Assembly (NCBI GenBank): GCA_963827165.1 | Contig: CAWGZR010000005.1 | Span: 906,560-970,559 of the forward strand | Origin: Candidatus Bathyarchaeota archaeon | GTDB taxonomy: Archaea; Thermoproteota; Bathyarchaeia; Bathyarchaeales; Bathycorpusculaceae | Length of the DNA: 64,000 nucleotides | Reading direction: 5' to 3' | Part shown: piece after piece, positions 31,961 to 63,455 of the stretch | Layout of the letters: each line of letters starts with the position of its first letter | Numbering within the stretch: the first letter of the stretch is position 1 | Notes under the pieces: model-generated | What the model saw: only the letters and a program-made list of their open reading frames with translations | Told to the model about the DNA's origin: nothing | The model's database searches: none | Translations under genes and position numbers: made by a program

Positions 31961-32020
31961 TGCAGGGGAAGTATTCGAACCCAAACCGGATAAAGACCGC
32001 CTCTATAGAATTTGAGCATC
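31961..32020 (-). repeat. tRNA 3'-end-derived repeat (module B)
   Basis: tgcaggggaagtattcgaacccaaaccggata is the reverse complement of a T-loop plus acceptor strand; similar to 51197 and 60816. Confidence 0.55.
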
Positions 32021-32168
32021 TCAAGGTACGATGAAGCGGAAGGCGGGAAATTAAGCGGGAAGTTTATGAAGTTCTTATCCGCTACTGAGTCATTATTAAG
32101 AAAATAACCTCGTATTCGGTTAAGGTGTCGAGATCCGCGGTTAAATGGAGAGAGGAGTTGAAGTAATC

Positions 32169-33725
32169 ATGCCTACGATAGTGGAAATGCTTGAAAAGAA
32201 TGCCCGCAAATATCCCAATGATGTGGCATTGATTGAGCTAACACCTAGCCAAAACTGCCGCAAACAAATTACTTGGAAAGAATTTGACAATGAAGCTAAT
32301 CGTATTGCGAATTATCTGCTTCAAAAAGGTATTAAAAAAGACGACAAAGTAATCCATTGGATGCGTAATTCTATCTCCTGGCTTGTAGCCTATTTCGGCA
32401 TCATTAAAACCGGTGCCTGGGCAGTCCCTCTAAACTATCGTTTCAACGCAAAGGATTTCAAATACTGCTCTGAAATAGCAGAAGCCAAAACGATTATCTT
32501 CGAGGATTTTTTCCTGAAAACTGTTCAGGAAGTAAAACCTCCTACCATTATAGAGTACATCTATCTGGGACCAAATCTCCCGTCAGGAATGACCAGTTAC
32601 GACGATATTCTAAAAGCAACCAATGCGGCTGCTCCCGAAATCAAGCTGAAGCCCAATGATGAATGTGGCTTATATTTTACATCAGGTACTACGGGGGACC
32701 CCAAACCGGTTCTCTTAACACACAAAAACATGACATTCACAGCTAAAGTTGAGCAAATACATCATCACCAGACTCACGACGACAATTTTATTCTTCTGCC
32801 ACCTCTCTATCATACTGGTGCCAAGATGCACTGGTTCGGCAGCCTCATAACCGGAGCTAAGTGCACTATTTTAACCGAAGTTAGTCCGAAAAACGTGTTG
32901 GATGCGGTCAGTAAGGAACGGGGAACCATCGTTTGGCTGCTTGTCCCATGGGTCCACGATATTTTGGTGGCTCTTGATACAGGTGCTCTAAAGCTGAACG
33001 AATACGACTTAACCTCTTGGCGTTTAATGCACATTGGTGCTCAACCGGTTCCTCCAGCTCTTGTGCAGCATTGGCTGAATTATTTCCCCAATATGGCTTA
33101 CGACAATAATTATGGCCTCAGCGAATCCACTGGACCCGGTTCAGTGCACCTGGGATTGGAAAACGAGTTCCGGGCTGGCGCTGTCGGTAAAGTAGGATGT
33201 GGTTGGCATCTTAAGATCGTAACTGAGGATGACCGTGATATTCCACCTGGGATGATTGGGGAACTGTGCGTCAAGGGTGACGGTGTGATGCGTGAATATT
33301 ACAAAAATCCTGAATTAACAGCGAAAACTGTCGTTGAGGGCTGGCTGCATACTGGTGATATGGCACGCATAGATGAAGATGGCTATGTTTATCTGGTTGA
33401 CCGCAAGAAAGACCTGATTATTGTGGGCGGTGAGAATATTTATCCCATAGAGATTGAAGACGCCATTCATAACCATCCTAAAGTATATGACGTAGCCGTG
33501 ATCGGCATCCCCGATGATCGTCTGGGAGAAATAATCGGTGCAGTCATCGACGTTAAACCTGGAGAAACCTTAACTGAAAAAGAAATCATGACACTTATTG
33601 AAGGTCTACTGCCCAAGTATAAGCGACCCCGCAAGATCATTTTTGATAAAGTGCCACGCAATCCCACCGGAAAGATCGAAAAAACCAAACTACGACTCAA
33701 ACACGGAAAACAAAATCAAGGTTAA
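32169..33725 (+). CDS. Acyl-CoA synthetase (class I adenylate-forming enzyme)
   Basis: FTSGTTGDPK, YGLSES, WLHTGD, DRKKDLI and PRNPTGKI motifs. Confidence 0.92.
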   Translation: MPTIVEMLEKNARKYPNDVALIELTPSQNCRKQITWKEFDNEANRIANYLLQKGIKKDDKVIHWMRNSISWLVAYFGIIKTGAWAVPLNYRFNAKDFKYCSEIAEAKTIIFEDFFLKTVQEVKPPTIIEYIYLGPNLPSGMTSYDDILKATNAAAPEIKLKPNDECGLYFTSGTTGDPKPVLLTHKNMTFTAKVEQIHHHQTHDDNFILLPPLYHTGAKMHWFGSLITGAKCTILTEVSPKNVLDAVSKERGTIVWLLVPWVHDILVALDTGALKLNEYDLTSWRLMHIGAQPVPPALVQHWLNYFPNMAYDNNYGLSESTGPGSVHLGLENEFRAGAVGKVGCGWHLKIVTEDDRDIPPGMIGELCVKGDGVMREYYKNPELTAKTVVEGWLHTGDMARIDEDGYVYLVDRKKDLIIVGGENIYPIEIEDAIHNHPKVYDVAVIGIPDDRLGEIIGAVIDVKPGETLTEKEIMTLIEGLLPKYKRPRKIIFDKVPRNPTGKIEKTKLRLKHGKQNQG

Positions 33726-33808
33726 CTCGCGCTCATACGTGATTTTGCCACAAACAAGCGGTTCCACAAAAAGTAGCCGCCAAAGGACCTGATGCTTGGA
33801 AGTTATTC

Positions 33809-33838
33809 TGGTGGATTGGGCGATTTGAACCCCAACCT
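33809..33838 (-). repeat. tRNA 3'-end-derived repeat (module A), includes CCA
   Basis: The reverse complement reads ggggttcaaatcgcccaatccACCA. Confidence 0.7.
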
Positions 33839-33907
33839 TTTAGGAGATCGCAATGTGCAGATTATTTATATCAGCGATAAACTTTAGCATAAGTTAGGTG
33901 TCGATTT

Positions 33908-34858
33908 TTGGGTCTTTATTCTTTCAAGAGCATACTTGATCCTCTTGCTCCTTTTGATTTCTCACAGTCACTTGCCTACTTATCCGACTTTAGCCCCCTG
34001 AAAAATGAGCAAGTTGTCAGCAACAACTCGTTTTCGAAAGCGGTTGAAATCAAAGGAAAAACAATTGCGTTTGAAGTTACCGAATTAGGAAATGTCGAAA
34101 ACCCAAAACTACAATTTACTGCCTACTCAGAAACAAGATTTACCTCTGAAATTGAACAGTTGGTCGCTGACAGGATCAGCTTCTTTCTAAGCCTTCAAGA
34201 TGACCTGAGAGAATTCTATAAAATCGCTGATCAGGATGAATGTTTTAAACCTATAATAAAACGGTTTTACGGTCATAAGCAAGTAAAGTTTTTGACCCCT
34301 TTTGAGATAACTTGCTGGGCAATTCTGGGCCAAAGAATACCTATGGCTGTGGCACACAAAATGAAAGAGCGGCTAGTTGAAAAATTCGGCGGTCACATCA
34401 ACATGAACGATAATGAATACCGAACGTTTCCTGAGCCAGCAACAATAAACGAGGCTGAGTTTTCAAAACTGCTTGAAACGATTCATATCGAGAAAAAAGC
34501 TGAATGGATTTCAGGAGCAGCAAAAGCGTTTAACCATATGGATGAACAATGGCTAAGAACCGCACCTTACGACGACGTTTATGTTTGGTTAACAAATATC
34601 AAAGGCATCGGCGAATGGTCAGCCAACTTCATTATGATAAGGGGATTGGGAAGAATGGAAAAACTCTCAAGTCTTGGCCCCGAGATTGCAACAAGTGCCT
34701 CAAAAATCTACACTGGAAATGATGAAGTAATGCCCGATCAAGAATTATGCGAGATAGCTGACAAATATGGTCAATGGAAAGGCTACTGGGCATATTACCT
34801 TAGAATCTATGCCGAATTTCTTTACGTCTTTGAGGTCGGCAAAAAACAACTTAATTGA
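33908..34858 (+). CDS. alkA: DNA-3-methyladenine glycosylase II (AlkA/HhH-GPD family)
   Basis: TPFE...AILGQ, FPEP, LTNIKGIGEWSA HhH motif, W.GYWAYYL. Confidence 0.8.
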   Translation: MGLYSFKSILDPLAPFDFSQSLAYLSDFSPLKNEQVVSNNSFSKAVEIKGKTIAFEVTELGNVENPKLQFTAYSETRFTSEIEQLVADRISFFLSLQDDLREFYKIADQDECFKPIIKRFYGHKQVKFLTPFEITCWAILGQRIPMAVAHKMKERLVEKFGGHINMNDNEYRTFPEPATINEAEFSKLLETIHIEKKAEWISGAAKAFNHMDEQWLRTAPYDDVYVWLTNIKGIGEWSANFIMIRGLGRMEKLSSLGPEIATSASKIYTGNDEVMPDQELCEIADKYGQWKGYWAYYLRIYAEFLYVFEVGKKQLN

Positions 34859-34903: not shown

Positions 34904-34968
34904 GTGGACTGGTGATTTGAACACGTACCTGCTGGTAATTTCACCGTATTGCCTTTTTCTTTTTTTAG
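34904..34968 (-). repeat. tRNA 3'-end-derived repeat (module A)
   Basis: gtggactggtgatttgaac followed by a degenerate tgg..atttcaccg..ctttt tail. Confidence 0.65.
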
Positions 34969-35327
34969 CCTAGAAATTGCTTCAATCAGAATACAAATGG
35001 GCGTAAGTTATTCTTTTATCTCATTGTCTGATCCTTTCGTGGCGCAACGTACGCGACTATTTTATTTAACAGCCTGCACTAGAGCATGTTGCCTGTGAAG
35101 AAAAAACACGTTAATCGGAGAAAGGATTGGTTAGTCCTTTTGATGATGACAGTTAACAAATTCTGAGGCACACTAACTGGGGAAATTCAGAGTTACGTAT
35201 GCTGTGACTGCGTTCGCAGGTTTTCGTTATCAGCCATTTTTCTTTTGTTCTTGCCCTTTATAATTGAACTCGTAAGATATAATAGACAAGACTTGCATAA
35301 CGTATAAAAACACAAATCTGAGCGGAG

Positions 35328-36044: not shown

Positions 36045-38703
36045 ATGAAATTATCAAACAAAAACCAAAAAACTCTAACAATTGCTTTGATATTCACCCT
36101 CTCAATTTCCGCAGCATTCGCAATCATGCCAAGTACCAAAGCGCGCGACATTCAAGGAACAATCGCAACTTACGCGTATCTCCAAGCTGTCCCTCAGCAA
36201 GTAGGCATAGGTCAAAACGTCTTCCTCGTAATGTGGGTCGACAAACCTCCAACCACTGCCTTCGGACCGTTAGGCGATCGATGGGTAGGCCTTACTGTCA
36301 CTATAACGCAGCCAGACGGCAAACAAGTGGTCTTGGGGCCATACCAGTCTGATGATGCAGGCGGCTACACCGCTACTCTATACTCCGACCGAACTAGGTA
36401 ACTACACTGCAGTCTTTAACTTCCCTGGAGAGACACTGACAGGTGACCAGGGAAACCCAGGCGGCATGACGTTTTCCAATACCCAGGCAATCGGCGACGT
36501 TTTTGGTCCTTCTACTAGCGCAGCTGAGACCATCATGGTTACGCAAACTCCCGCAAGCACTCTTCCAGAGAATCCGCTTCCAACTAGTTACTGGCAGAAT
36601 CCAGTCGAAGCATTCAATCACAATTGGTATGCAATAGATGGCAACTGGCTCGGATTAGGAGATGTAGAATTCGCAAACACTGGCGACTATGCAGTCACCG
36701 GGAACTATAACCCATACACAACCGCACCAACCTCTGCACACATACTTTGGACTTCTCCCTTAATTCCAGGTTCACCAGGCGGTCAAATGGGCGGAGAATT
36801 CGGTGCCAGCGAGCAAGGCAACTACTACTCAGGATTCCAATATCAACCCAAGTTTTCACCGATAATCATCAACGGAATTCTCTACTATGATGCTGTCCCT
36901 ACCTACTCAAGTGGTGGAAGCTACCAAGGATGGGTTGCCAGAGACCTAAGAACAGGGCAAATTCTTTGGACAAAGAACTACATGAACTACTTCGCACCAG
37001 GCTCCTATGACCTCCTGATGTGCGGACAAGTATACGTGTATAAGTCACCGAACACTTACGGCGGACAAAGCTACCTATGGGCAACTAGAACAACAGGCGG
37101 AATAAACTACCTTGACCTATTTCGACGCGGCAACAGGAAACTACATACTAAGTATTAACGGCTCAGGACAGCGTCAGGATCTTTCGGCGTTACAAACATC
37201 GAAGGGGACAACGGCATCCTGTTGCAGTACTACACAAGTGTACAACGCCACTGGGGCTCAAACACTGAATTTCTGGAACTCTAGCGTTTGCCTAATAGGC
37301 GGAGGAGTTGATTTGGGATTCTCGACGCTAACACAAAACGAAGTAGTTCCCTACTCTAAAGGAGTAGTCTGGTCAATACCACTGCCAAACAGCTATCAAG
37401 GAGTTGCTTTCCCTGCAGGAGTTAGCTGGATACTTGACGAAGTCGGACACGCGGCAATAGATCCCAGACAATAACATAGCCATCTTAGGCGCAGGCGCTG
37501 GTGAGTATTCCATGTACTCATTTGCCACAGGCTGGGTTATGCGAGCAGCCTATAACCTGAATACTGGAGCGCAACTTTGGATGAAGAACCAAACCGAAAC
37601 CCCCTATTCAACAGTAATGGCCATACCAGGAGCTAACGATGGAGTCTACGTTGAGTATACCAAAGAAACGACAACATTTTCAGGTTACAGCACAACTACA
37701 GGACAGCAAGTGTGGGGTCCAACAACACCCTTCCAGAATCCTTTAGGCTACTACGACCAAACAAGTGGAGTATGCGCAGGCGGAGCTTTATACGCATGGA
37801 CATTCGGTGGTTGGATCTACAAATATAACATGACCACTGGCAGCCTCATCTGGAGCTTCACTGATGGAACCGCTGGAGAAAACACACCCTACGGCGTCAA
37901 TCCCTTCTGGATCATCGGCGACTACGAAGCCACACTTGCAGGCGGCATGCTCTTTGCAGAATCTGGACACTGCTACGGTCCGCCATTATTTAGCGGAGCA
38001 CGGCTTTACGCAATCAACGCAACAACTGGAAAACTAGTTTGGAGCATAATCAACTTCGACACTGGTTCATGCCCAGCAGTAGTCGACGGGCAACTCTTGG
38101 CTTTCAACGCATACGACAACCAAATATACTCATACGGCGTAGGCCCCAGCAAAACAACAATTAGCGCACCTTCCGTCGGAGCAACAACATCCACTCCAGT
38201 AACCCTTACTGGAAGAGTCACCGACATCTCTTCAGGTTCGCAGCAGACAGCAGTCGCAGCAAACTTCCCCAATGGATTGCCATGTAGTCTCAGACGCTAG
38301 CATGGAACAGTTTATGGAAGCCGTTTATGAGCAAGAACCAATGCCGAGCAACACAACTGGAGTTCCAGTTACTTTCACAGTCTTAGACAGCAATAATAAC
38401 CTCCGATCAATAGGCTCGACAACCACAAACGCTCTAGGCGACTACTCATTCACGTGGAAACCTGACATTGCAGGCAACTACACCATATACGCAACCTTTG
38501 CCGGCACACCATCATACTATGGATCATCTGCCTCCACAGGATTCTATGCAAGCTCACCAGCAGCAACAACCGCACCAACATCAACACCTCTAACTGGCTT
38601 AGCCTCAAACAACACAGTCATGTACGGAATCGTAGCGGTAATCATCGTGATAATCATTATCGGCGCTGCAATCATGTTGATGCTCAGCAGAAAACGACCA
38701 TAA
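36045..38703 (+). CDS. PQQ-type beta-propeller surface protein (paralog 3; multiple frameshifts)
   Basis: Five consecutive ORF pieces rebuild the family architecture; ends in TM plus RKRP. Confidence 0.82.
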
Positions 38704-38880
38704 ACTTAAGAAGCAAAAACAAACCAACCCTTTTTTTCTTTTTTAATGACTTAAACCAGAATTCAAACAATCAAATTTAACCTTTTTCATCCGGCTTTAG
38801 GTGCTTGATCTCTCGTTATAATTCTGTCTTTGCAAAAAAAAAACTGAACAGGAATCACCTGCTCTTAGCAATAATGTTCA

Positions 38881-38920
38881 CGTGAAGGGGATTTGAAACC
38901 TTGGGCTGTCCGAGTGACCC
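38881..38920 (-). repeat. Degenerate tRNA-derived fragment
   Basis: gaaggggatttgaaacc T-arm reverse complement. Confidence 0.4.
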
Positions 38921-39045
38921 CGTGAGTCAATCCGTGTTTTCAAAAAATGTTAATACCTAATAGTGGTTACTTGATTGCATTCAACTGGTCCATCGCATTT
39001 GTGATGCACCGGTGCCTACAGAGAAACGGAGAGTTTCTTTATGAT

Positions 39046-39650: not shown

Positions 39651-40061
39651 CTTCTTTTTTAGAATTCTTAAACCACAGCAAGCATGAGTGGACTGAACCG
39701 AAACGTGCCAAGCCTCGACACGCAATATCTCAGCACTTATGCGCTCGTTTAAGCGCCAATACAATAATCGTAATTGAATGTCGCTGTAGCTTCACAGTCA
39801 CATAATCTTAAATATATTTTTTAGCAAGAATAATGATCGTCGGAGAGCAAGTTAAGGATTAAAAAATTCCGCCGCTATCATAATAAGTCTATCATTCTTC
39901 TGGGCATTGCAAAGTTAAGAGAACATGGAAATAATGATCGATTTGAAGCGTGATTCAGCGAATCCGTGTGACTCAAATCAGCACATTTTAGTTCTACAGC
40001 TTTTCCTTGCCTTCAAACGAATCAAATAAGCTAATTCAAAAAGAAATATTAGGAAAAAACC

Positions 40062-41402
40062 ATGAAGAAACTACAAATTCTAATAACTGTATTATTAATT
40101 TCGCTATTAATCTGCGCCTTCTCGAGTTGTGTTTTGAAGGGTCCAGTTACGGTAACTGGTGCGGGTGCGCCAGCGGCGACTTCAACTCCAAGTCCCTCGT
40201 CGTCTCCAACTCCAACGCCATCTCCTACTCCCTCTGCTACTCCTATTCCCTCTGCTACTCCTTCTCCCTCTTCTACTCCTACGGCTAGCCCTAAGCCATC
40301 CTCAACGCCAACTCCAACTCCCTCGCCGTCCCCGACTCCTTCACCATCTCCTACCCCTACGTCTACTCCTAAGCCAACTCCAACACCATCATCATCTCCA
40401 ACCCCTTCGCCCTCTCCCATTCCTACGTCTACTCCTAAGCCGACTCCATCCCCCTCTCCAACTCCTTCTCTCTCTCCTACTCCTACAGCTAGTCCTAAGC
40501 CATCTTCAACTCCAACTCCATCTCCTACTCCTTCACCATCTCCCTCTCCAACTCCCTCGGCTACTCCTAAGCCGACTCCATCTCCCTCTCCAACTCCTTC
40601 TCCATCTCCTACGGCTAGTCCTAAGCCATCTCCAACGCCAACTCCGACTCCCTCGCCGTCTCCCACTCCCTCCGCTAGTCCTAAGCCAACCCCAACATCA
40701 ACTACAACTCCAACCCCACCAACGCCAACACCAACAGCAAGCTCTAACCCAACACAAACGCCAGCACCAACACCATCCCCATCTCCAATTTCAACGCCGT
40801 CTCCTACCCCCTCTGTTACTCCTTCTCCCTCTCCGACTCCTTCGCCGTCTCCTACTCCTACGGCTAGTCCTAAGCCATCATCAACGCCAACTCCAACTCC
40901 TTCTCCATCTCCGACTCCTTCGGCAACAATTGTACCAGTGACGATAGTAGGAGGTGCTACCATTGAGGTCGCCGTCAGTGGGAATATAACCAGTCCACAA
41001 ATATCTCATGCCACCATCACCTCAAACCAACCCACCAAAACAACTACAATGGCTTTCACAATAACAGGACCAGACGGAACAGCAGGCCTCGGCAATATTA
41101 CCATTCCAAAAACCGACATTTCTTATGGGATAAACCCAGTCGTATACATAAACGGTCGGCAGGCTCTAAACCAGGGTTATACGCAAGACGTCAATAACTT
41201 CTACATATGGTATACAACTTTCTTTGACACAAATCTCGTAAATGGAGTTTCTCAAGTGACAGTGCAATTCTTTTTGCCCTCACCGTTGGCATCTAGCTCA
41301 ATGGGACCTGCACTTGCCATGGGCATAGTTGTCCCCGAAATCATTCTAATCTTCGCGGTTATAGCGGTAACGCGTTTTAGACGAAAACCTGAAGAATTAT
41401 AA
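40062..41402 (+). CDS. Surface protein with long Pro/Ser/Thr linker and C-terminal TM
   Basis: Signal peptide, about 250-aa PTPSP repeats, G..G..NITIPK domain, TM plus RRK. Confidence 0.85.
40176..40930 (+). repeat. Intragenic degenerate tandem repeat ([24 protein letters not shown] units)
   Basis: Recurrent cctaagcc / acggctagtcctaagcc units. Confidence 0.85.
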
Positions 41403-41656
41403 TCACGCTGCCTTTCGTCGATATTGTTTAATTTGTAAGAGAATCGGCGTTAATCCGTCGAATTGATTTTGCGAATCTTTGGTTGGGCAAAGGGCACTTC
41501 TTTTGGAAGTTCAAGTTGGAACCGTCTACGGAAAAGGGGGCCCAGAATGGGTCTGCTGCAGAATTAACCCCAGCATTCCCGAGATGTTTAGACTACTTTG
41601 GCTGACAGCAAAAACTGAAGAATTGAGGAAACATAGCAACGAGTTTAGACTGCCTT

Positions 41657-41853
41657 GTTGACTGGGGGGATTTGAACCCCGAGAAAATGGAGATATTACC
41701 CGCAAAACCCCTTTTTCCCTTTTGGTCTTCTAAAATCATGGAAAAATGACGAGATGGAAGGAATGGGCGCTGATAGGGCTCTGGTTAAATTCAATACAAC
41801 TGCAATTAAAGAGCTTCCGTTTTCTTCTTTAGTTTCTAGAACCTCAGCAAACC
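41657..41853. repeat. Full A+C composite repeat (tRNA-Ala-like 3' end plus MITE-like module)
   Basis: gactggggggatttgaacccc-gagaaaatggagatattacccgcaaaacccctttt...gctgatagggctctggttaa...ctgcaatt...acctcagcaaacc; colinear with 52855-53072. Confidence 0.8.
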
Positions 41854-42023
41854 GACAAATCTACTGTTTTGTTTTTGACTGATTGCTTTTCAGATTCAAG
41901 AATTATCCCAATATCACTGTTTTTTCTATGATGAAGCGATGGTGCTTGAAAATCGCTAAAGCTCACGTATATCGCTGCGTATTAAGAACATTTAAAAGGC
42001 AAAAATAAACCTAAACGGGATAA

Positions 42024-42089
42024 GGACAAGTGAGTGGTTTGGCTTCTTTTAATCTCCCTTCTCCCCCATCCAAACCACTTTCTTGCTCC
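42024..42089 (-). ncRNA. Candidate small hairpin RNA
   Basis: TATA-like cttaaat at 42111-42117, a stem of about 17 bp with a 27-nt purine loop, and a T-rich tail. Confidence 0.4.
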
Positions 42090-53292: not shown

Positions 53293-53529
53293 TTGGAAGT
53301 CGCAATCGACAAGCAAGGACGAATAGTTATACCTAAAGAAATCAGGGAGAAATACGGTCTTTCGCAGGAAGGCAAATTAGCACTAGTAGCCCGCGAAGAC
53401 GCTATCGAGCTGATTCCGCTAACTGAAGAAGATGATTTGGCAATTCGTTCCCTAAGAGAACCTTGTAAGACAGGCAGCCCAGAAGCGGGTAACAAGCTTT
53501 TCTCGCGGGATAAGGCTTGGAAACGATGA
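53293..53529 (+). CDS. AbrB/MazE-family antitoxin
   Basis: IDKQGRIVIPKEIREKYGL. Confidence 0.88.
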   Translation: MEVAIDKQGRIVIPKEIREKYGLSQEGKLALVAREDAIELIPLTEEDDLAIRSLREPCKTGSPEAGNKLFSRDKAWKR

Positions 53530-53973
53530 GAATTATAGACGCAGACATCCTTTCTTACGCTCTCTTCCAAAAACACGATGCTCACCCATATTGCTGGCCG
53601 CTACTGCAGAATGCGATTCACGGTAAGACAAGTGTAGCAATCGCGACAGTAAATCTGTTGGCAGGCATTTCACGCACTGGTAGAAGATTATGCTGTGGAA
53701 AGGGAAGAAGCATCGTACAAACTTGATGGGTTGACTAGAAGCACAAGAATACGGTTTTTGCCCCTTACCGTTGATATCGCCCGAAAAGCCTTGGAAATAT
53801 CGAAACTTCACAAGGCAAGGTCTTTTGACGCGAACCTAATTGCTTCTGCAGAAATAAACGGGATATCCGTGATCGTAAGCAACGACGGTCATATCGCTAG
53901 ATTATGCAAGGAGCGAGGTCTAATCTTCGAAAATCCGATACCTGAGGCAGCTGCAAAGAAAATGAGTCTTTAG
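53526..53973 (+). CDS. vapC: PIN-domain (VapC) toxin (frameshift near 53665)
   Basis: IIDADIL...SFDANLIASA...IVSND acidic PIN residues; ATGA overlap with the antitoxin. Confidence 0.82.
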
Positions 53974-54161
53974 AACATTTTCCCCTTCTTAGAAATCAAG
54001 TGTGGAACTTCTTGGGGATTAGATGGCTAAGGTGTCTAGTCTTTCCGAGTTTCGGACATAAAATTGTTCTTCAAGCTCTCTCATATGAGCCTTTACCAAA
54101 AAGGGTAATTCTGACGGTTGCAAGCGTTATCCATTGAAAGGTTAAGTCTGTGAGGATGTCC

Positions 54162-55718
54162 TTACTTTTTAGCATTCTGAGTTTGGGTTATCTTGTTTTT
54201 CCTTTTAGTTAGCACTGTAGTAAATAGAGAAACTATCAAAAATATTGTCGGGATTAAAAGTAACGGTGGAAACTCTGGAACTGCTGGTGAAGGTGTTGAC
54301 GTGTCTGAGGGCGGAGCTGAAGTTGTTGGTGAATGTTGTGGTATAGCCGTCGGAGCGGTTGAAGGACTTGAGGATGGCGATGAACCTGAGGTTGATGATG
54401 TTGGACTCGGGGTAGGCGTTGGATTCTGCGTGGGTGCAGGGGACGGGCTACTATTGCTGGCTGAGCTGTAAGTTATTACAGTTGGGTCAAATGAGAATCC
54501 TGAGCTTTGATTATAGTAGAATCCATCAAAGCAGACATACATGGTGGATGAATTCCTAGCTTGGCTTGGGTCTGTGCTTTGAACATAATTTTGGACTGGA
54601 ACGTAAAGGCGTGTTGTGTTGTATGTTTGGGAGTCACCGTTTATCGTGTAGTTTGATGGGAAAATTTCTTGGCAAACTTCTGTGCCGTTGACCGAATAGA
54701 TCGCGCTGTCTTTATTAGCATTCGTAGAGAAGAAGGAGACGAACGGTTGAGCGACGGCATCTTGAGTTATTCCAAAACCTAAACTGTCAGCTGTTACTAA
54801 ACTGAAACTGTCTCCATTATTCAATCCCGTAGTTGGGAAAGCGGTATCTGCGCTCCAATCAACGTTCACACCGTACTTATAAGCTGTGTAAGCGGAGTTC
54901 TCAGTAACTTGAAACATAAGAGTAATTGGCACGTTGCTTACCGTTTGATGTGGTGGAAGTGTCGGTGTGTTTGGTCCCGCTGCAGTCAGTTGGCAGTTGA
55001 TTATCTGTGCGTCCAGCGTTACGTTAAATGTGGCTATGCTGTCGGTCAAAGCGTTGCCGTTGTAGGTAGTATTTTCGGTGTCTAATGTTACAGGGCCGAT
55101 TGCTGCCGCGCTGCAGTTAGCATACGAGATGCTGCCAACTTGATTGTTGAGCATATACGCGTAATCCGTCGAATTTCCAACTTCATTAAGGCTTAGTTGT
55201 TGTGCAGTTCCGTTAATGATATCAAATCCACTAAACGAATATGTCGTTCCCCATGCCGTCCTGGAGTCTAAACTTCCATCATCGGCTAATGTAAATGATA
55301 TGCCGTTTAGTTGGGTCCAGTCCAGCACTTGCGGGTTATAGTTTGGATAACTTGAAGCTGAGTCGTTTATGCCTCCTGGATTGAACCAGTAAACAAAGTG
55401 CATAGACACTCTAGTGGCGCCGTTTCCATACCATAGTGTCATGCTTCGGTCAAGAGTATCAGCCTGAGGCATAAACTGTGAATAGTTCACATCCACTTGG
55501 GGAGTTGACTCATTTGCTCCTGTGTACCAGTTGTTATTGTCGATAGCTTGAAAGGGCTGAGTAGTGCTCTCGGAGATGCGGGATCCAGAACTGATTGCGG
55601 CGACCGCCTTAGAATCGATAAAGGTTAGAGACGCCAATAACATGAGACAGAAAACTGAAATGTACAAAATTTTCCTGGAGGTTACCTTTCTGATATGCGA
55701 GTTCCAAACATTTTTCAT
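54162..55718 (-). CDS. Secreted surface glycoprotein with PEF-CTERM-like tail
   Basis: Signal peptide, many N-x-S/T sites, S/T/P linker, VPEF-P plus TM plus KRK. Confidence 0.8.
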   Translation of the reverse strand: MKNVWNSHIRKVTSRKILYISVFCLMLLASLTFIDSKAVAAISSGSRISESTTQPFQAIDNNNWYTGANESTPQVDVNYSQFMPQADTLDRSMTLWYGNGATRVSMHFVYWFNPGGINDSASSYPNYNPQVLDWTQLNGISFTLADDGSLDSRTAWGTTYSFSGFDIINGTAQQLSLNEVGNSTDYAYMLNNQVGSISYANCSAAAIGPVTLDTENTTYNGNALTDSIATFNVTLDAQIINCQLTAAGPNTPTLPPHQTVSNVPITLMFQVTENSAYTAYKYGVNVDWSADTAFPTTGLNNGDSFSLVTADSLGFGITQDAVAQPFVSFFSTNANKDSAIYSVNGTEVCQEIFPSNYTINGDSQTYNTTRLYVPVQNYVQSTDPSQARNSSTMYVCFDGFYYNQSSGFSFDPTVITYSSASNSSPSPAPTQNPTPTPSPTSSTSGSSPSSSPSTAPTAIPQHSPTTSAPPSDTSTPSPAVPEFPPLLLIPTIFLIVSLFTTVLTKRKNKITQTQNAKK

Positions 55719-55953
55719 GAGCTATTCACCGTTTCTTTCCGGATCATGGAGTCTACACTCTTAGGCTAAAGTTACATCTTTTTTATGCAGATACAATATA
55801 AGTGATTTATGAATTCCTAATAAACAACCCCAAAACTCGCCAAAATTAGGTCGCAACCTCACAATATCAGCGTCCTAGCGCAAATACACTTTTGGAAAAG
55901 AAATCAACCAATTCTGCTATGAAATTCTGAGGCTTTACTGTGAAAACGTTAGA

Positions 55954-56062
55954 GTGGACTGGGGGATATGAACCCATGAGAAAGTGGAGATATCACCCGC
56001 AAAATCCCCTTTTTTTCTTCTAATCAGCGGATTACTCGCGCGGCCAGAACCTCAACAAACCC
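55954..56062. repeat. Module A fused to the right end of module C
   Basis: gtggactgggggatatgaaccc-atgagaaagtggagatatcacccgcaaaatcccctttt...aacctcaacaaaccc. Confidence 0.75.
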
Positions 56063-56138
56063 ATTTAATTCTTATTCAAAAAATTCTTTTCTCTTACAAT
56101 GCAACGTTCATGTCCCTGATAAAATAAAAATCACATGG

Positions 56139-56930
56139 TTAAGCAGCTTGTTTCCATAGTTTGTTGAAATAAGTCTGGACTGAAAATATTAAGGCACGGC
56201 TATTCGTCCACAGCATCGGAGAATCACCTATGAGTTTTTCAGGAGAGGTGTAGACAAGCAGTTCTTTTTTGTCGTAAATACCAATCATTGCTGGTAGCGA
56301 TGATGAAATGAATTTGATTCTAAAGTTGGGATAGGGCATACAGTGTTCATAGATCTTTTGAGCTGATTGCTGTTCAGGAAGCTTCTCTGAGACAATTCTT
56401 ATTTTTACTTGTCTTTTTAGCGCTTCAAGGGTTTGGTTCTTGAAAAGGGAACTCGCGTAGCCGACGTTTTCCCATAAACCATTGATGATGTCGCATGACT
56501 CTTCTGTTTTATCAACGACCATTCTTGAATGTCTTATGATTGCTTCTTTCCCGCTTGTGATCACAAATTCGGCTGTTTTTTCTTCGGTTAATCTTTCCAC
56601 TTGAGTGTTCTTGAAGTCTTCGAGAATCTTTTTTGCCTTCTGCTCAAGCTCTAATGAAGATTTTTCTCTTCGTTTAACAAGAAAAGAAACAGTTTCGTTT
56701 ATGGGAACTGGTTTAAACTCGGTTGGATTTACCAATATTTTTTCTACCAGCCCCAGACTTTGCAGTTCAGCAGTAACTCGCTGGGCTTCCTGCCTTGCTA
56801 TGCTGGCATTTTCCGCAATTTTCTTAACTGTACTCTGTCCTTTTTTAAGCAAGGTAAGGTAAACCTTGGCTTGAAGAAACGTGAGCCCAAATCCTCTAAG
56901 AGTCTGAATATCTTCACTTTGAAGCATCAT
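56139..56930 (-). CDS. TrmB-family transcriptional regulator
   Basis: L..FGLT..QAKVYLTLL HTH, L..LGLVEK, PLD-like I.D.KE..W.N C-terminal domain. Confidence 0.88.
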   Translation of the reverse strand: MMLQSEDIQTLRGFGLTFLQAKVYLTLLKKGQSTVKKIAENASIARQEAQRVTAELQSLGLVEKILVNPTEFKPVPINETVSFLVKRREKSSLELEQKAKKILEDFKNTQVERLTEEKTAEFVITSGKEAIIRHSRMVVDKTEESCDIINGLWENVGYASSLFKNQTLEALKRQVKIRIVSEKLPEQQSAQKIYEHCMPYPNFRIKFISSSLPAMIGIYDKKELLVYTSPEKLIGDSPMLWTNSRALIFSVQTYFNKLWKQAA

Positions 56931-57004
56931 CCTCTCCCCGGTACAGGCAACGCAATGTTACCTATGTACCTTTCATATCATTTCAGTTTTAAGTTTTTCT
57001 GAAA

Positions 57005-57021
57005 GCAAGAAGCTTTCTTGC
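57005..57021. promoter_or_regulatory. 7-3-7 palindrome (candidate TrmB operator) just upstream of the TATA of paralog 5
   Basis: GCAAGAA-gct-TTCTTGC, followed by tttaaata at 57027. Confidence 0.55.
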
Positions 57022-57082
57022 CACTTTTTAAATACAGTTTCCTCTGATCTCATTCTTTATAAGAATAAGGAGAAAAACAAAA

Positions 57083-59688
57083 ATGTCTATTGAGTTCTTT
57101 ATTAGGAATTCTGAGAATCATGGAAAGCAGAAACTATCAGTAATTTCTTTGATTCTGTTGTTGACAATTTCCGGGGCAGTAATAGCTTTACCAACGACAA
57201 AAGCCCAGACCGCAACTTCTCCTTTGCCTACGAATGCCTTTTGTAATGTTTCGCCGAACCCCGCAGGAGTCGGCGAGCAGGCGACCATAGAAATGTGGTT
57301 GGCAAGCCAACCCGACTGCATTTGGTGAGGTAGGAGGAAGATGGCAGGGCTTCACAGTATTGATTACAACGCCCAGCGGGACAACCACAACATTAGGACC
57401 GTTCACAGCCAATGACGCCTCATTCTACGTGACATACTACACACCTGCTACTGTTGGTAACTACACCTTTAAGTTCAATTTTCCAGGGCAGCACGTAACT
57501 GGGTTTTCATTCGTAACTGACCAACCAATCAACAATTATTTTGCAGGGAGCAGTTTCACCACATCCCTTTCGGTGCAGCAACAACCAGCGTCATCTTATT
57601 CACAAACTCCGCTTCCAACATCATACTGGACCCGCCCAATAAATTCACAAAATAGTTTATGGGCTGCAATTTCAGGAAATTGGCTGGCGTTAGGAACATC
57701 AACTTTTGGATCAACAAACTACAACTCGACGGGAAACTTCAATGCATACAGCACCGGACCCGGAAGTGCTCACATACTGTGGTCTAAGCCAGTGGAGAAC
57801 GGAGGCCTAATCGGAGGCGAATTCGGCGGAACCGATACAAGCAACTACTTCACGGGAAAGTCTTATCAAATGGAGTTCACACCGCCAATAATTATCAACG
57901 GCGTACTTTTCTACAATGCTCCTACGAATCCTAAAGAAGGTTTCTACGCTGTAGATTTGCAAACGGGACAACAATTATGGTGGCAAAACAGCACCGGCGC
58001 ACCGTACCAACCTTTTGGCGGCATGGTGGTGGGCTGGGCATACCCTGATCTTACGCTTGGTCAGACCTATAACTATCTGTCACCCAACATGGAAGGAGGT
58101 TTGCCCTACTTGTGGTCAACTGACACAAATACGTGGTACATGTATGACGCCAACACGGGAAACCTGATATTACAAATGACAAATGCATTAAGCCCAACGG
58201 AGGATTCACAACTGACAGTTGAAGGACCTAACGGCGAACTCCTTGACTACATCGTAGGAACTGGTTGGATAGCTTTGTGGAACTCGTCACAGGCCATCGG
58301 AACATTCGGCGAATATACGCCACCGATCTCGCTATTTAGTACAAACTACTGGGTCTGGAGTCCACCAACTGGAGCAAGTCTTAACTGGGAACGGGCATCC
58401 AATGGAACATTACCAGTCAAACTTACCCAGGCGAGGCAATAGTAGACGTCAATTCAGGAATAATACTTACAAGCACAGATACGGGAGTTGGCAGCTTTTT
58501 GGCGCCTCCCACCGTTAGCTACGCAATCGAAGTAGGCTACAGCGCAACAACAGGGAATCAACTATGGATTCAAAATGTGACACTACCATCTGGACCCACA
58601 ACTGGGTTCAACTACGAAATGGGACCAATGGCTGACGGCATATTCACAGTATACGATGCATTTGCTGAGCAGTGGTATGCATATAACGCCAACACAGGCC
58701 AAAAGATATGGGGCCAACTACAGCCGATGCATATCCATGGGGTTCAGAGCCTTGTCCGTGGCAATCCCAAATTGCTTATGGAATTCTGTATGGATTTGCT
58801 TCAGATGGGGTTCACGCCTTTGATTTAACAACTGGCAAGCCACTTTGGACTTTCAACGGAATTAACAGTGGAACGAATTTTCCTGGATTCAATTACTATC
58901 CTTTTGAGCAAGCTACAATGACCGTTGCTGACGGAAAACTCTACTTGAACACAGGCGTTAGTCATGGGGACCCAGTTTTTGATGGCGCCCAACTTTACTG
59001 CGTAAACGCTACTACTGGAAAACTAATTTGGAACATAAACACATTCGGTGAAGGAGACATGCCTATTTCAGACGGCGTTCTCGTAGCTCTAAACGGCTAC
59101 GACAACCAGATATACGCTTACGGGCAGGGCCCAAGCAAAACAACTGTTAATGCACCACAGGTTGGCGTTACAACATCGACACCAGTGACGATCACCGGTT
59201 CAGTTACAGACATCTCCTCTGGCGCATCGCAGAATGCGGTTGCCGCGAACTTCCCCAACGGGTTACCATGCGTTTCAGACGCAAGCATGACGGCCTTCAT
59301 GGAAGCAGTCTACATGCAGCAGCCAATGCCAACCAACATAACCGGCGTTCCAGTCACACTATTCGTCCTAGACTCCAATGGCAACTACCGATCAATCGGC
59401 ACAACCACAACCAACGCGCAAGGCGAATACGGCTTAACATGGACCCCTGACATCGCAGGCAATTACACGGTCACCGCAGTCTTCGGAGGCACACAATCAT
59501 ACTACGGATATTCAGCCTCAACCTACTTCTACGCAGGCGCTCCAGCGGCAACACCAGCGCCCAGCACAACACCACTCAGCGGCTTAGCCTCAAACACCAC
59601 AGTCATGTACGCAGTCGTCGCAATGATCATTGTATTCATCATAGGCATCGTCATAGTCGCACTGCTCGTGACAAGAAAACACCCATAA
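57083..59688 (+). CDS. PQQ-type beta-propeller surface protein (paralog 5; frameshifts)
   Basis: Four ORF pieces with family motifs; ends in TM plus RKHP. Confidence 0.82.
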
Positions 59689-59739
59689 ACGACAAAAAAC
59701 CAACACCAAATCCTCTTCCCTTTTTTTAGTCCTATAGAA

Positions 59740-59833
59740 AGTTACATTCAAAATAGCTGCAATTGAAGAGATTGCATTTTTTCTTTTTCTCCTAAAAGAA
59801 CTTTTCTTTCGTAGTTTCCAGAGCAGCAAACCC
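59740..59833. mobile_element. Module C copy (left end truncated)
   Basis: gttacattcaaaatagctgcaattgaagag...tagtttccagagcagcaaaccc, close to 51037-51135. Confidence 0.7.
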
Positions 59834-59882
59834 AAAATCGCTCAGCAAGCCACGGTTGACTTTTTCAATTCGGCAAAATGAA

Positions 59883-59904
59883 AGTTGGCGCCTGGGAAGG
59901 GATT
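59883..59904 (-). repeat. tRNA 3'-end repeat (module B), left copy of a direct repeat
   Basis: agttggcgcctgggaagggatt; the reverse complement ends ...CCCAGGCG-CCA. Confidence 0.75.
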
Positions 59905-59909
59905 TCTTC

Positions 59910-60449
59910 CTAGTTTAACTGCGAGTCATCGATTTCTTTTATTATTCTTGCCAGCAATTTTGGTTCGATTCTGAACCCTTTGCGAACCAGAGTTAGCATT
60001 ATTTCCTTTGCCTCTTTTTTATCCAATATTCCGTGTCGCAGAGACGTCATTATCACGTAGATTACGCCTTTGACTTTTAGCCCCCAAGCTTCAGCAAATG
60101 CTCACCTAGATTCATCAATTAAAAGTAGCGTTTCCTTGCCCATTCTGCGAGCTAAAGCTATAGCCTGCGCTTCACCCATATGAAGTTCAAATGCGTGATT
60201 CGTCATTTCGAGCACAGTTCGACTTCTTTTTCATCAAGCATTGTTATTTTTATCCAGCCTTGATCAACCGCCTCTTTGATTATCAAAGCATCGCTGAACC
60301 CTTCTTGCAGACCTGTTGCAACGGCTTCTTCGAAACTTCTTTTGGATCAAAACTCATCAAAAAGGTCTCTGAGTAGATCAAGTTTGCCCATTTTTGAGAG
60401 CCATATTAGCGGACTGGTGTTGGAGATGGTGCAAATTTCTGTGCTCCAA
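59910..60449 (-). CDS. DUF3368-type PIN toxin (frameshifted)
   Basis: SNTSPLIWLSK.G.LDLL..LF, LH.GEAQAIALA, LLIDE, GL.V.G and GFRI in shifting frames. Confidence 0.75.
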
Positions 60450-60767
60450 TTAAGACTTGAGGTCTTCCTCTAGGCTTGTCAGAATACTGGATGAGAACTC
60501 CTTTTTCTGCCAATATTCTATAGAACGCCCATAGGGACACTCCTCCTAGTTGGGCTGCCTTCCAACCAGTGACTTGACCTGCACGATAGAGTTCACTCGC
60601 CTGTTCCGGGCCTTTCTCTTTAACTCCGTGCTCCAGTAACTCGCGTATGAGCGTTGATCTGTCTTTCCCTTCTTTCTAGCTATTTCACGAAGTTTCCTTG
60701 CTGTTGCAGGAGGTAATCTTAGCGTGATTGTTTCTGAAATGGCATCCTGTAATACAGTAGATATCAA
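60450..60767 (-). CDS. RHH/UPF0175-type antitoxin (frameshifted)
   Basis: TITLRLP...LREIA, GVSLW.F...L...G...Y....EED. Confidence 0.65.
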
Positions 60768-60812
60768 ACGTATCCTATAAACTTCACCAAAATCCTATGA
60801 CCATAATTTTGG

Positions 60813-60850
60813 AGTTGGCGCCTGAGAAGAGATTCGAACCCAAAATTAAT
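60813..60850 (-). repeat. tRNA 3'-end repeat (module B), right copy of a direct repeat
   Basis: agttggcgcctgagaagagattcgaaccc; 20/22 identical to 59883-59904. Confidence 0.78.
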
Positions 60851-60889
60851 CTGGTGTATATCTGTACTTAAAAGGTTAAAACCGCGTTA

Positions 60890-60948
60890 TGGACTGGGGG
60901 GATTTGAACATCTGACCTCTTGAGTACAAGTCAAGTGTTCATAGCAGC
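60890..60948 (-). pseudogene. tRNA-Ala-like relic lacking its 5' third
   Basis: Reverse complement: ...ctatgaaca-CTTGA-cttgtac-TCAAG-aggtc-agatgttcaaatcccccc-agtcc-a. Anticodon arm intact, T stem broken, no 5' acceptor strand. Confidence 0.7.
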
Positions 60949-61021
60949 AGAATTCGCGATTCTCCGTTTTGCAGAAGCTTAAAGTACTACGCCTGTACTA
61001 CCATCATTGGTGAATCCGCGT

Positions 61022-61311
61022 TTGAAAGAAGAAGTAAGGCGACTCGAAAGTACCAGGTTACTATACCTGAAAGTGTCCGATCCAAACTTGGCGTAAGAAT
61101 TGGCGACAAACTCATTGTAAAGTCTGAAAACAAACGCATAATAATGGAATCTCCAAAACGAGTCTCCAACCCCTCTGATGCGCTCTGGAACCTTTTTGGC
61201 AAACCAATCGATATTGACGCAACCAAACTCATTGAAGAATCTTGGAAAAAGACCGCCCTCCCAAACCAAAAGAAACTGGGTTGTGAAAAGCGAAAGGAAG
61301 CTGCAGATTGA
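61022..61311 (+). CDS. AbrB/MazE-family antitoxin (start uncertain)
   Basis: Manual translation ATRKYQVTIPESVRSKLGVRIGDKL; the stop overlaps the vapC start. Confidence 0.8.
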
Positions 61312-61718
61312 GCTACTACGTGGACACCAACATCTTTGATTATTCAGCTCTAGCACACCCCGTTTACGGCAAGTGTTGTAAACAAATAATCGATGATATC
61401 CAGAATGAGAAGATTGACGCTTTCTGTGGTTTTCTGGTTCCGATAGAACTCCTAGGTTCCCTATCCAAGATAGATCCTGCAAAAGCGGCAATCGCTCTTG
61501 ATGCATTCTTTTCTTTGCCGATAGAGATGATACAGATCGATGAACGAGTTCTTCAAGACGCAGCGACCATTATGCTAGAATCAGGCGTTACCTATGACTC
61601 TGTACATGCCGCATGCATGAAAAGGCAAGGCTTAGACACCATAATAACTGAAGATATAACAGACTGGAAAAAAATAAAACCCATCAAAGTCATAAGGCCC
61701 CTTCAGTATCAAAAATAA
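61308..61718 (+). CDS. vapC: PIN-domain (VapC) toxin
   Basis: YVDTNIF...E...YDSVHAA...IITED. Confidence 0.88.
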   Translation: MSYYVDTNIFDYSALAHPVYGKCCKQIIDDIQNEKIDAFCGFLVPIELLGSLSKIDPAKAAIALDAFFSLPIEMIQIDERVLQDAATIMLESGVTYDSVHAACMKRQGLDTIITEDITDWKKIKPIKVIRPLQYQK

Positions 61719-61739
61719 ACAAGCAACGATATTTTCCGA

Positions 61740-61765
61740 GCGGACTGAGGGAGATTAGAACCGTA
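61740..61765 (-). repeat. tRNA 3'-end repeat (module A, degenerate)
   Basis: gcggactgagggagattagaacc, 21 bp after the vapC stop. Confidence 0.55.
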
Positions 61766-62054
61766 GGGTTCAGACCACACTGCACAGAAAGCGAAAATTA
61801 CCCTGAAATCGCCGAAAATGATTTCGGCGACATTATGTTGTCGTGAGGAGAATGGTAGTCGTGTATTCGTCTTAAGACTCGGTTGTTGATATCAACAAAA
61901 GAATTTTCGCTTCTGCGTTCTCCCTTTTCTTTTTCTTGTTTCGATGCAGAAATCGAATCTTTGACTTTCGCTAAATAAAGCAGAGGTTAGGTACGCCTAA
62001 TAATGGGAAAAGGCCATGGTCATAAGAGCTACCTTAATCTTCCCTCAAATTCAG

Positions 62055-62836
62055 TTACTGTGTACCAATTGAGCCACCGACTTGAAATGATTGAGTGGAT
62101 AGCAGAAAAAGCCATGCGGAAGTTAGGGATAAAATGCCAACAGGAATCAAATAAAGAGCAGTGTAAGGTGCTAAGAGCACGTACCCGTTCGCCGCATTTA
62201 GCCCAACTGAACCAAACACTCCAATTATTACATTCATAATTAATGCTATGACACCAAGGGATAGAATCCATAATGCAATCTTTGTTGAGAGTCGAAATTT
62301 AGTTTGTTTAGTTCTTCCAACTAATAGAATTAACAATCCCGCTAATGGCAGAATCGAAAGAATATTCGCGAATTTCCCGGATTACTCCACCAAGACAGCC
62401 GAATGAATTGAAATACCGTGAGAGTGGATGCAAGATCCGGTCTGCCTCAGTAACGACAACAAGACCAAGAGAAGCTATTGAAAGTAATGTTATTCCTGCA
62501 ACCGAGTTTGCTCTCTTGAACTCTGGCACGCCAACTGCCGATTTACGCATCCTCATTTTTACTCCCGCTATCACAGCGGCTATTCCAGCAAAATAGGCAA
62601 AATAAAGCATCCAACGCAAGGTGAAAATTTGAAAATGCGTATAATAGAACTCAAACATTTCAACCGTGTAAAATGCGACCAAACCTAAGCCAATGATAGC
62701 AAAACTATTCCGCCAATTCGGAGCAATGATTTGCTTGTTAAAGCAGCTGTATTAGGTTTACTTTCAGAAATACTTGCTTTATTCGGCTGTTCGGGAAGCC
62801 AACCCCTAACCTTTTGCTCTATATGCTTAGCTTCAT
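62055..62836 (-). CDS. Multi-TM hypothetical protein (frameshifted)
   Basis: KVRGWLPEQP N-terminus plus TM-rich ORFs 62308-62682 and 62055-62336. Confidence 0.55.
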
Positions 62837-62957
62837 GCTTTCAACTCCGGGATAAGTTTACTGAAAATCATGTGGGCTAGCTTGGCTGGGTGAACATTGG
62901 CTACTTCCTGATGTTTAGTCCTCTTTCTCTGCCGATATCCATTAGGTACCCCCGTGT

Positions 62958-63311
62958 TTATTCAAGAAAGGCTTGGTCGGATTCTTCGGGGTTGTCGTGC
63001 CAGTACCAGACTTTTAGGCCGTGGTTGGTTGTGTAGGTGATGATGGTTTTGCGTTTCAGTGATGGGTGGTAGCCGAGGAGCATGGCTTGTTTTGGGTACA
63101 GCTTTGTCACTTGGATGTCGTTGACTTGTGCCACGTCTAGGAGTGTGGTTGCAAGTTTAGCTTCTGCGGCTAATCTGGTTTGGTTGACGTATTGTCGTGT
63201 CGTTTTGAGTTTGTCAGCTATATTTGCGACTGAGAAGCCTTTGCTGATTAGTGACCAAATGGCTTTTTGACTTTGACTCAACGGTGAAGAAACTGAGCAA
63301 CTTGGGCACAT
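62958..63311 (-). CDS. HTH DNA-binding protein (probably extends further via a frameshift)
   Basis: LSQSQKAIW...G.SVANIADKLKTTRQYVNQ. Confidence 0.6.
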   Translation of the reverse strand: MCPSCSVSSPLSQSQKAIWSLISKGFSVANIADKLKTTRQYVNQTRLAAEAKLATTLLDVAQVNDIQVTKLYPKQAMLLGYHPSLKRKTIITYTTNHGLKVWYWHDNPEESDQAFLE

Positions 63312-63397
63312 CGTTTATCAGTAAATATAAATATATTTACAAGTATTTAAAATTTGTTAATACACCTTGTCGAGGGAAAAGGTCAAGGTTCTTGTAA

Positions 63398-63455
63398 CGC
63401 GGAACCGATTTGAATTCCAAACTTGATTAAATCTCTATGGATTTGAACCCTTGAC
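63398..63455 (-). repeat. Module B copy
   Basis: gatttgaattccaaacttgattaaatctctatggatttgaaccc aligns with 51210-51252. Confidence 0.65.

Follow-up and report, generated by a model that had tools for sequence, protein, structure and literature searches.

Co-oriented tRNA 3'-end fragments in a Bathyarchaeia genome as probable attachment-site scars of repeated insertion at a tRNA-Ala gene

The DNA considered here is a 64,000-nucleotide (nt) stretch of a Bathyarchaeia genome (hereafter the window), the second half of which is punctuated by fragments of transfer RNA (tRNA) 3' ends. It forms the terminal 64 kb of contig C5 in the host genome (G000), a 3.13-Mb assembly in 14 contigs of a soil archaeon. 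An earlier note on this DNA described about 15 such fragments, all on one strand, all intergenic and absent from the first 31 kb, and read them either as attachment (att) sites of an integron-like gene-capture array or as a repeat of the kind of short interspersed nuclear elements (SINEs). The window has no intact tRNA gene according to ARAGORN and no match to an Rfam family. The motif GGATTTGAACCC, with at most one mismatch, occurs 7 times in the window against 0.52 expected (7 or more matches arose in 0 of 100 shuffles), and GGATTCGAACCC occurs 7 times against 0.25 expected; pooled, the matches mark 10 distinct places, none before 31971, which lie on the plus strand without exception. The listed sites were aligned, with gaps, to the 3' 40 nt of 42 host tRNAs identified with the Rfam tRNA model, and 3000 random genomic 40-mers supplied the null distribution (99th percentile 21, 99.9th percentile 29). 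Scores exceed 21 at 13 of the 15 main sites; 52835 (21) and 63398 (20) fail the 99th-percentile test, and the flanking arm of the latter is common to 51197 and 31961. Two weaker candidates are marginal (53210, score 23) and unsupported (54001, score 17). A strict hairpin scan for T-arms and ungapped matching to the tRNA-Ala tail were too rigid and were replaced by gapped alignment and profile models, because length changes in G/C runs hide most window copies from rigid scans. Sites sit between larger open reading frames (ORFs), with the exception of 63398, which overlaps the 3' end of a doubtful ORF of 94 amino acids (aa), and none precedes 31.9 kb. The fragments derive from host tRNAs, exceed chance and are co-oriented, which bears out the strand and position given in the earlier note, most of the number and, 63398 apart, the intergenic placement.

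Two types dominate when the fragments are mapped to host tRNAs, and all sites described here lie on the minus strand. Seven are of Ala(TGC) type. Among them, 41657 (41656-41727; score 38, 65.6 bits with the family model R1), which has the form of an attR-type junction, 51272 (51269-51345; score 34, 57.7 bits) and 52855 (52851-52926; score 32, 65 bits) consist of a flanking arm plus a tRNA core, as does 55954 (55952-56022; score 34), which together with a 190-bp target flank makes up a feature at 55764-56022 that has a copy at the end of contig C10 and a breakpoint at 56019. Scars at 34904 (34904-34970; score 25 against tRNA-Ala(TGC)) and 61740 (61740-61815; score 28) are decayed and degenerate, respectively, and 60890 (score 50) belongs to a nearly full-length pseudo-tRNA-Ala(TGC) at 60889-60952, 87.5% identical over 64 nt to C10:392670-392733, in which ARAGORN finds no tRNA. 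Five sites are of Ser(CGA) type, for which an intron-bearing tRNA-Ser(CGA) gene (C5:452278-452396) serves as the reference: 31961 (31959-32019; score 27), with a T-arm and acceptor core and a second-family arm that aligns with those of 51197 and 63398; 51197 (51196-51255; score 36; 45.6 bits with nhmmer, itself a model member), also with a second-family arm; 59883 (59883-59912; score 35), an acceptor with the 3' T-stem; 60813 (60815-60870; score 39); and 63398 (63395-63451), assigned by its arm, a degenerate composite of half T-arm, arm and T-arm-like core that is recognised by alignment and scores 20 for the core alone. The remaining sites resemble Ala(CGC), Gly or Arg tRNAs in the tail alignment, such as an Ala-like core ending in CCACCA with a decayed arm (33809-33860; score 31, best with tRNA-Ala(CGC)) and a Gly-like T-arm fragment (38881-38935; score 25) downstream of a gene piece with PQQ and Ig-like domains (Pfam). 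The family model adds two sites to those listed before: an arm with half a T-arm at 51953-52003 (R1 32.1 bits) and an arm-only remnant at 46620-46655 (R1 19.9 bits, E 7e-5).

The four best Ala-type window sites and copies on C4 and C10 share a conserved arm of ~40 nt that adjoins the T-arm, contains a GATATC-centred palindrome and has an oligo-T run at its end. Ser-type sites 31961, 51197 and 63398 carry a different, second arm that itself starts with half a T-arm. Scanning the whole genome with the Ala-family profile (nhmmer) gives nine strongest copies (E up to 2e-9), namely four in the window (all minus), four on C10 downstream of a tRNA gene (all plus) and C4:70382. Weaker or partial matches on C5, C10, C11, C13, C1 and C3 fill ranks 10-19 (down to E ~0.01) and include the fifth and sixth window sites, the tRNA-Ala gene, an att repeat of tRNA-Leu (C5:333078) and five others. 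Downstream of tRNA-Ala, in this genome and in related genomes, the copies are co-oriented with the tRNA. Arm-only copies lie ~50-110 nt outside some full copies and resemble repeated protein-binding sites. RNAalifold, run on 40 copies with RNA energy parameters and no attC model, finds no consensus hairpin or fold (0 pairs) in the arm-plus-core family, and the idea of an RNA element was dropped for that reason.

Further long copies of tRNA 3' parts, exact or nearly so, occur elsewhere in the genome, 1.7-18 kb from intact genes, for Thr (48 nt, C5:310361 region), Leu (26 nt, C5:333119-333144), Arg (44 nt, C10:96013-96056), Met (41 nt, C11:119607-119647) and Ser (18 nt, C1:45180-45197); several such copies near intact genes indicate other integrated elements in this genome. 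An integrase pseudogene adjoins tRNA-Leu at C5:314873-316069. A second small island, similar in composition, occupies C4:62282-70454. It contains what is left of a tRNA-Ala(TGC) anticodon region (62282-62308, decayed), a pair of PQQ genes accompanied by a ~125-nt module that is described below, 26 residues of an integrase (67125-67202) and, at 70382-70454, an arm-plus-core site.

The intact tRNA-Ala(TGC) gene is located outside the rRNA operons at C10:392660-392734. A convergent tyrosine integrase of 409 aa (PF00589, E 2e-24) ends 59 nt past it; the integrase gene is intact beside the tRNA and is not split by integration, and it is followed by an archaeo-eukaryotic primase (AEP), a winged helix-turn-helix (wHTH) protein and others. 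A 27-nt exact repeat of the tRNA-Ala end (tRNA positions 52-78) stands ~14.7 kb downstream. This 14.7-kb unit is an ordinary integrated element with two att junctions. The arm just inside its distal junction aligns to the window arm without a gap, and in both the palindrome is equally far from the core, so the window sites are the same kind of junction, made of an element arm and a displaced tRNA core. Three more sites come after the distal junction, the last of them at the contig end, and each precedes a PQQ-propeller gene that is encoded on the other strand; all four C10 sites are downstream of tRNA-Ala and point the same way, at spacings of 4.1, 7.7 and 4.0 kb that delimit single-gene units. 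The earlier note suggested a search for a tyrosine recombinase at an array end; the only nearby integrase is this one, beside the intact tRNA-Ala and inside the 14.7-kb element, and not in the window.

Comparison of the window with the genome by BLAST suggests a link between the two contigs. The terminal 256 bp of C10 (C10:423515-423260) match window positions 56019-55764 at 99.6% identity, and the similarity stops exactly at the outer arm end (56019); BLAST of contig ends against contig ends missed this overlap because the matching stretch is 8 kb inside the C5 end. Read along the C10 direction, all window sites point as tRNA-Ala does. In a related genome (G032), a homologue of window 27864-25572 (86% identity) stands 1.1 kb past tRNA-Ala and is oriented as predicted. 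On these sequence grounds C10 would be physically joined to the window, and the array is probably one island of ~60 kb of which the window is the distal half. The leftmost scar is at 31959, yet G032 carries the homologue of the gene at 25.6-27.8 kb between tRNA-Ala and a site.

Synteny and assembly breakpoints coincide exactly with fragments, as the earlier note led one to expect. Read data came from four soil metagenome runs, used as assembled contigs, in which circles, empty sites and rare joints do not show; the four runs cover 41500-56019 at ~99-100% identity. C10 diverges from the window at 56019, and so does a 2731-nt contig of run X1 that matches 53394-56019 and continues with 106 nt unlike the window. 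In another species of the genus (G060), the DNA of window 53975-64000 is present as a single block of 10,070 nt (G060:C17:15087-25121; L147/L148) at 97.1% identity, with unrelated flanks and a left end that falls inside a G060 arm-plus-core site. The first 37 kb of that contig contain 8 co-oriented arm-plus-core sites and no tRNA gene. The block points to recent exchange of island DNA. A simple assembly chimera at 56019 was considered and is countered by the single G060 block; both arrangements at 56019 exist, as expected from two related elements that share an arm and were inserted at the same target. Contigs do not cover 56174-61499 except for paralogue pieces, which is taken as no evidence of absence, and in G060 this stretch is contiguous with 53975-56019. 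A joint of 41796 to 51055 in three runs (sides of 36-39 nt) was also considered as a deletion; it lies in copies of the ~125-nt module and was taken for cross-mapping of paralogues.

Relatives of the C10 integrase are annotated as Bathyarchaeia. Where at least 200 nt are available beyond the integrase stop (71 loci), a convergent tRNA follows within 120 nt in 50. Relatives with at least 59.6% identity are at tRNA-Ala(TGC) in 14 of 14 cases, and for more divergent relatives the tRNA is one for Cys, Arg, Pro, Leu, Asn, Ile, Gly or Phe. The Ala-family model has a match (E up to 1e-4) in 57 of 60 other genomes, although a single match may be tRNA-Ala itself. The complete genome G003 has the same arm joined to Ala, Cys, Leu and Gly-like cores; at least 5 of its 17 matches are found downstream of a co-oriented tRNA that fits the core, at distances of 0.9-10 kb. 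A survey of 26 genomes of the genus, which reached as far as 20 kb past tRNA-Ala(TGC), recovered 24 sites in 12 genomes, every one co-oriented with tRNA-Ala. The survey found a full integrase beside the tRNA in three genomes, a two-piece integrase in one and a C-terminal integrase stump in four; such stumps mean that units shrink by deletion. A second integrase stump stands directly after a displaced site in G041, as serial insertion predicts. Among eight IMG/VR contigs matched by pattern, three have the arm with a Leu-like core, which once abuts an integrase ORF. On that contig (L171; 13,339 nt), the arm and core at 4882-4943 abut or overlap the 5' end of a 316-aa integrase ORF on the same strand, 41% identical to residues 128-409 of the C10 integrase, in a layout unlike the convergent tRNA-integrase pair on C10.

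We consider it probable that the fragments are att-site scars left by repeated insertion of elements into one tRNA-Ala(TGC) gene. Elements of one Bathyarchaeia family with tyrosine integrases would enter the tRNA 3' end (T-arm plus acceptor), here that of tRNA-Ala(TGC). Each insertion would restore the tRNA from the element's own core copy and would displace the old core outward, where it would be preceded by the ~40-nt arm of the incoming element. Serial insertions would leave a row of arm-plus-core junctions that are oriented like the tRNA and that each part a former element or its cargo from the next; integrases would later be deleted from older units and the scars would decay. The outcome would be a variable island of ~60 kb with PQQ-propeller surface proteins, PIN toxins, regulators and enzymes. 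The order of these events, and a single integrase family behind every scar, are what we infer from the arrangement. Ser(CGA)-type pieces are proposed to be older or imported scars that ride beside the Ala-type ones.

Several observations weigh against serial insertion at tRNA-Ala. The link between the window and this gene consists of the 256-bp overlap and of synteny in one relative (G032), and the same two markers are 81 kb apart in G033 and 93 kb apart, in the other orientation, in G052. The window has no PF00589 match, no tblastn match to the C10 integrase and no integrase remnant. Excision or circle junctions were not found in the run contigs, which as assembled contigs cannot show rare forms. 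Ala-type sites that carry the downstream flank of the tRNA lie 200 kb and 1.5 Mb from tRNA-Ala in G003. The Ser(CGA)-type scars are far from the tRNA-Ser(CGA) gene at C5:452278, near which no integrase was found, and to explain them inside an Ala island one must also assume that old scars were carried along or that the DNA was rearranged. In the genus survey, 9 of 26 genomes lack an integrase homologue in the unit nearest the tRNA, four such units being only 0.44-1.5 kb long, and the 3' end of the next PQQ gene is regularly 210-410 nt from the site; random decay does not predict this regular spacing, and cassette-like or duplicated units fit it better.

A working cassette system would explain these last two observations, and we regard it as unlikely. 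Integrase-less units of 0.4-5 kb, often one PQQ gene with arm, core and module, would be non-autonomous cassettes that a trans-acting integrase from a resident element puts in, cuts out and reshuffles at tRNA-Ala. The array would then be kept up instead of decaying, with a function like that of integrons or of cis-mobilizable elements (CIMEs). Single-gene units bounded by sites in G000, in G016 (3.7 and 5.0 kb) and in G060 (a 518-aa gene between sites 2.0 kb apart) are consistent with such cassettes, as are the genus-wide conservation of the arm (at least two Ala-family matches in 43 of 60 other genomes) and the 10-kb block, with one end at a site, that two species genomes have in common at 97% identity. 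However, many cores are degenerate in the T-loop or acceptor, so that no selection on the sites is visible, and the integrase stumps speak of units that shrink. Cargo genes are on both strands, the host genome has one full-length Ala-type integrase, and no circular or empty-site junction was observed in the contigs, the only form of read data used.

Unequal crossing-over, either homologous or by att x att recombination between sister chromosomes, could have duplicated a unit of PQQ gene, module and scar, although we find this improbable. It would account for the recurring order of site, spacer, module and PQQ gene and for the many loci of the PQQ C-terminal domain (~26 in the genome), and tandem repeat junctions made by site-specific recombination are described in the available text of a preprint on tycheposons (10.1101/2020.12.28.424599). 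However, the spacers between module and scar are non-homologous, different copies carry scars of different tRNA identity, and cargo is unrelated across units (AMP-binding enzyme, HhH-GPD, PIN, regulators); the paralogues are only ~65-77% identical, so any duplication signal is old. An integrase-independent, tRNA-derived mobile repeat resembling SINEs or miniature inverted-repeat transposable elements (MITEs), or a functional 3'-untranslated or terminator element, is very improbable: up to 27 arm-plus-core matches per genome, the oligo-T end of the element in gene sense directly after convergent genes and some G003 copies that are not near a cognate tRNA would suit it, but the fragments hold the tRNA 3' part only (T-arm plus acceptor; pseudo-tRNA 60889-60952 excepted), one arm stands on cores that match whichever tRNA is upstream, the surveyed sites are co-oriented downstream of tRNA-Ala (24/24), no consensus RNA fold emerges and the outlying arm-only copies look like protein-binding sites. 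The SINE-like repeat proposed earlier is not supported.

Bacterial integrons and those reported from archaeal genomes have a row of recombination sites in the same direction, small gene units and toxin cargo. The present array differs from them in lacking an integrase, an attI site or a promoter platform; its sites are derived from tRNAs and have no conserved hairpin, it is decaying and its genes lie on both strands. The integron-like capture array of the earlier note survives in a broad sense, as gene capture at tRNA-derived att sites of tyrosine integrases, and fails with respect to the integron platform: the window has no recombinase, the nearby integrase occurs only in an ordinary 14.7-kb element, and decayed sites and integrase stumps are signs of shrinkage. 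Streptococcal CIMEs, which accrete with integrative and conjugative elements (ICEs), are att-flanked units without integration genes in tandem with an autonomous element at a tRNA-type site. The integrase-less tandem units here are similar, and their mobilisation in trans is conceivable, whereas the host is archaeal and conjugation genes were not observed. Integration of the Sulfolobus spindle-shaped virus (SSV) type splits the integrase gene, whereas here an unbroken integrase gene adjoins the tRNA. In Sulfolobus, integrases are known to capture genes.

Re-use of att sites generates arrays of elements in archaea and bacteria (Krupovic et al. 2019, PMC6563490). Tyrosine integrase, tRNA target, direct repeats of the tRNA 3' end and tandem occupancy are common to this island and to those arrays, as presented in the available text; the Thaumarchaeota elements in the same text are whole, with a median att length of 17 bp, whereas most units here are integrase-less and 0.4-10 kb long. 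Tycheposons of Prochlorococcus occupy tRNA-gene islands with successive insertions, fragmented integrases and scattered partial tRNAs, according to the accessible part of the preprint (10.1101/2020.12.28.424599). On the same basis, they share with this island tRNA-specific tyrosine recombinases with integrase clades that track the tRNA, a small replication module (primase) with cargo, and older elements pushed into the island. The comparison concerns architecture, and the host here is archaeal (Bathyarchaeia). This island also differs in its high scar density (~15 in 32 kb, and 8 in 37 kb in G060), in an arm that is conserved across cores of different tRNAs and in cargo much of which is a single PQQ-propeller family. 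In the main-text literature searched, with supplements outside the search, we found proviruses, genomic regions and PQQ expansion for Bathyarchaeia and no description of att arrays. The earlier statement that such an array is not described for this lineage holds to that extent, although the mechanism itself is known elsewhere. Specific to the lineage are the arm common to several tRNA specificities, the close packing of scars and a cargo that consists mainly of PQQ surface proteins.

Bathy-6 Bathyarchaeia have variable genomic regions and a very large PQQ-domain gene family, as the available text of PMC11697101 reports. Cargo in a tRNA-Ala hot spot that is re-used across the genus would be a concrete mechanism for both. 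The analysis defines an integrase family with clades that track their tRNA targets (Ala, Cys, Arg, Pro, Leu and others). The conserved arm motif marks element ends. Both the arm and the integrase family help to map mobile DNA in archaea that are not in culture, and the integrases could serve as site-specific integration tools for these organisms. For annotation, such rows of tRNA fragments are a warning, since they are scars and not genes. If units were instead moved as cassettes, interspecies exchange of PQQ units at tRNA-Ala would drive the Bathy-6 PQQ repertoire, and the system would be an archaeal, tRNA-based functional analogue of the integron special to this genus.

Cargo between the sites comprises large ORFs on both strands in units of ~1 to 10 kb. 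Pfam confirms the acyl-CoA synthetase and AlkA units of the earlier note as an AMP-binding domain (32145-33725) and an HhH-GPD domain (33908-34858). Its three toxin-antitoxin pairs are borne out in part: one full PIN domain (61308-61718) and one C-terminal piece (53695-53973) were identified, and the Pfam search of the window, small ORFs included, matched no antitoxin family. The ORF at 53695-53973 (region 53517-53973) covers PIN profile positions 51-119 only and is probably a VapC-like gene that has been truncated or has undergone a frameshift. It lies where the block in common with G060 has its left edge.

The 995-aa PQQ-propeller/Ig-like surface protein at 47963-50950 (plus strand; Pfam) is directed towards the scars at 51196 and 51269 and has paralogues, also by Pfam, at 29129-31513, 37512-38703 and 58708-59688. 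Overlapping ORFs at 37512-38703 (262 aa, PQQ_2; 143 aa, Ig-like) resemble one frameshifted gene for a PQQ surface protein. The C-terminal domain of these proteins (~210 aa, Ig-like with a hydrophobic tail) recurs across its genome loci at 45-77% identity, in the window at 22465-23102, 31346-31876, 38105-38745, 50354-51144 and 59092-59843, and at ~20 further loci on C4, C5, C9, C10, C12 and C13. A pyrimidine-rich terminator follows each stop codon of these PQQ genes.

Between PQQ genes and scars lies the module of ~125 nt with terminal inverted repeats, which was delimited by BLAST, a 12-copy alignment and alifold at 51019-51143 (plus strand) and, by BLAST and alignment, has other window copies at 41741-41853, 52958-53074 and 59741-59843. 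Copies elsewhere are C4:62375-62499, C4:67223-67333, C5:872350-872461, C10:407529-407642, C10:411705-411824, C10:415085-415197, C12:162710-162851 and C13:7705-7823. The module has a constant orientation after the PQQ-gene terminator (or the arm), and in many cases a tRNA scar comes 50-130 nt after it. The copies have just the terminal stem in common, with no clear compensatory changes in alifold. The module could belong to the att region, represent a MITE or serve the gene family as a 3' element.

Other repeats in the window are of smaller extent. A 446-aa ORF at 40062-41402, which has no Pfam match, contains internal tandem-like repeats at 40180-40927 with self-matches of 70-87% identity, and the GC skew is -0.33 in the bin 40001-42000. 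A repeat of ~115 nt at 42577-42695 has copies at 83% identity at C1:53423-53537, C6:96435-96545 and C3:288189-288269.

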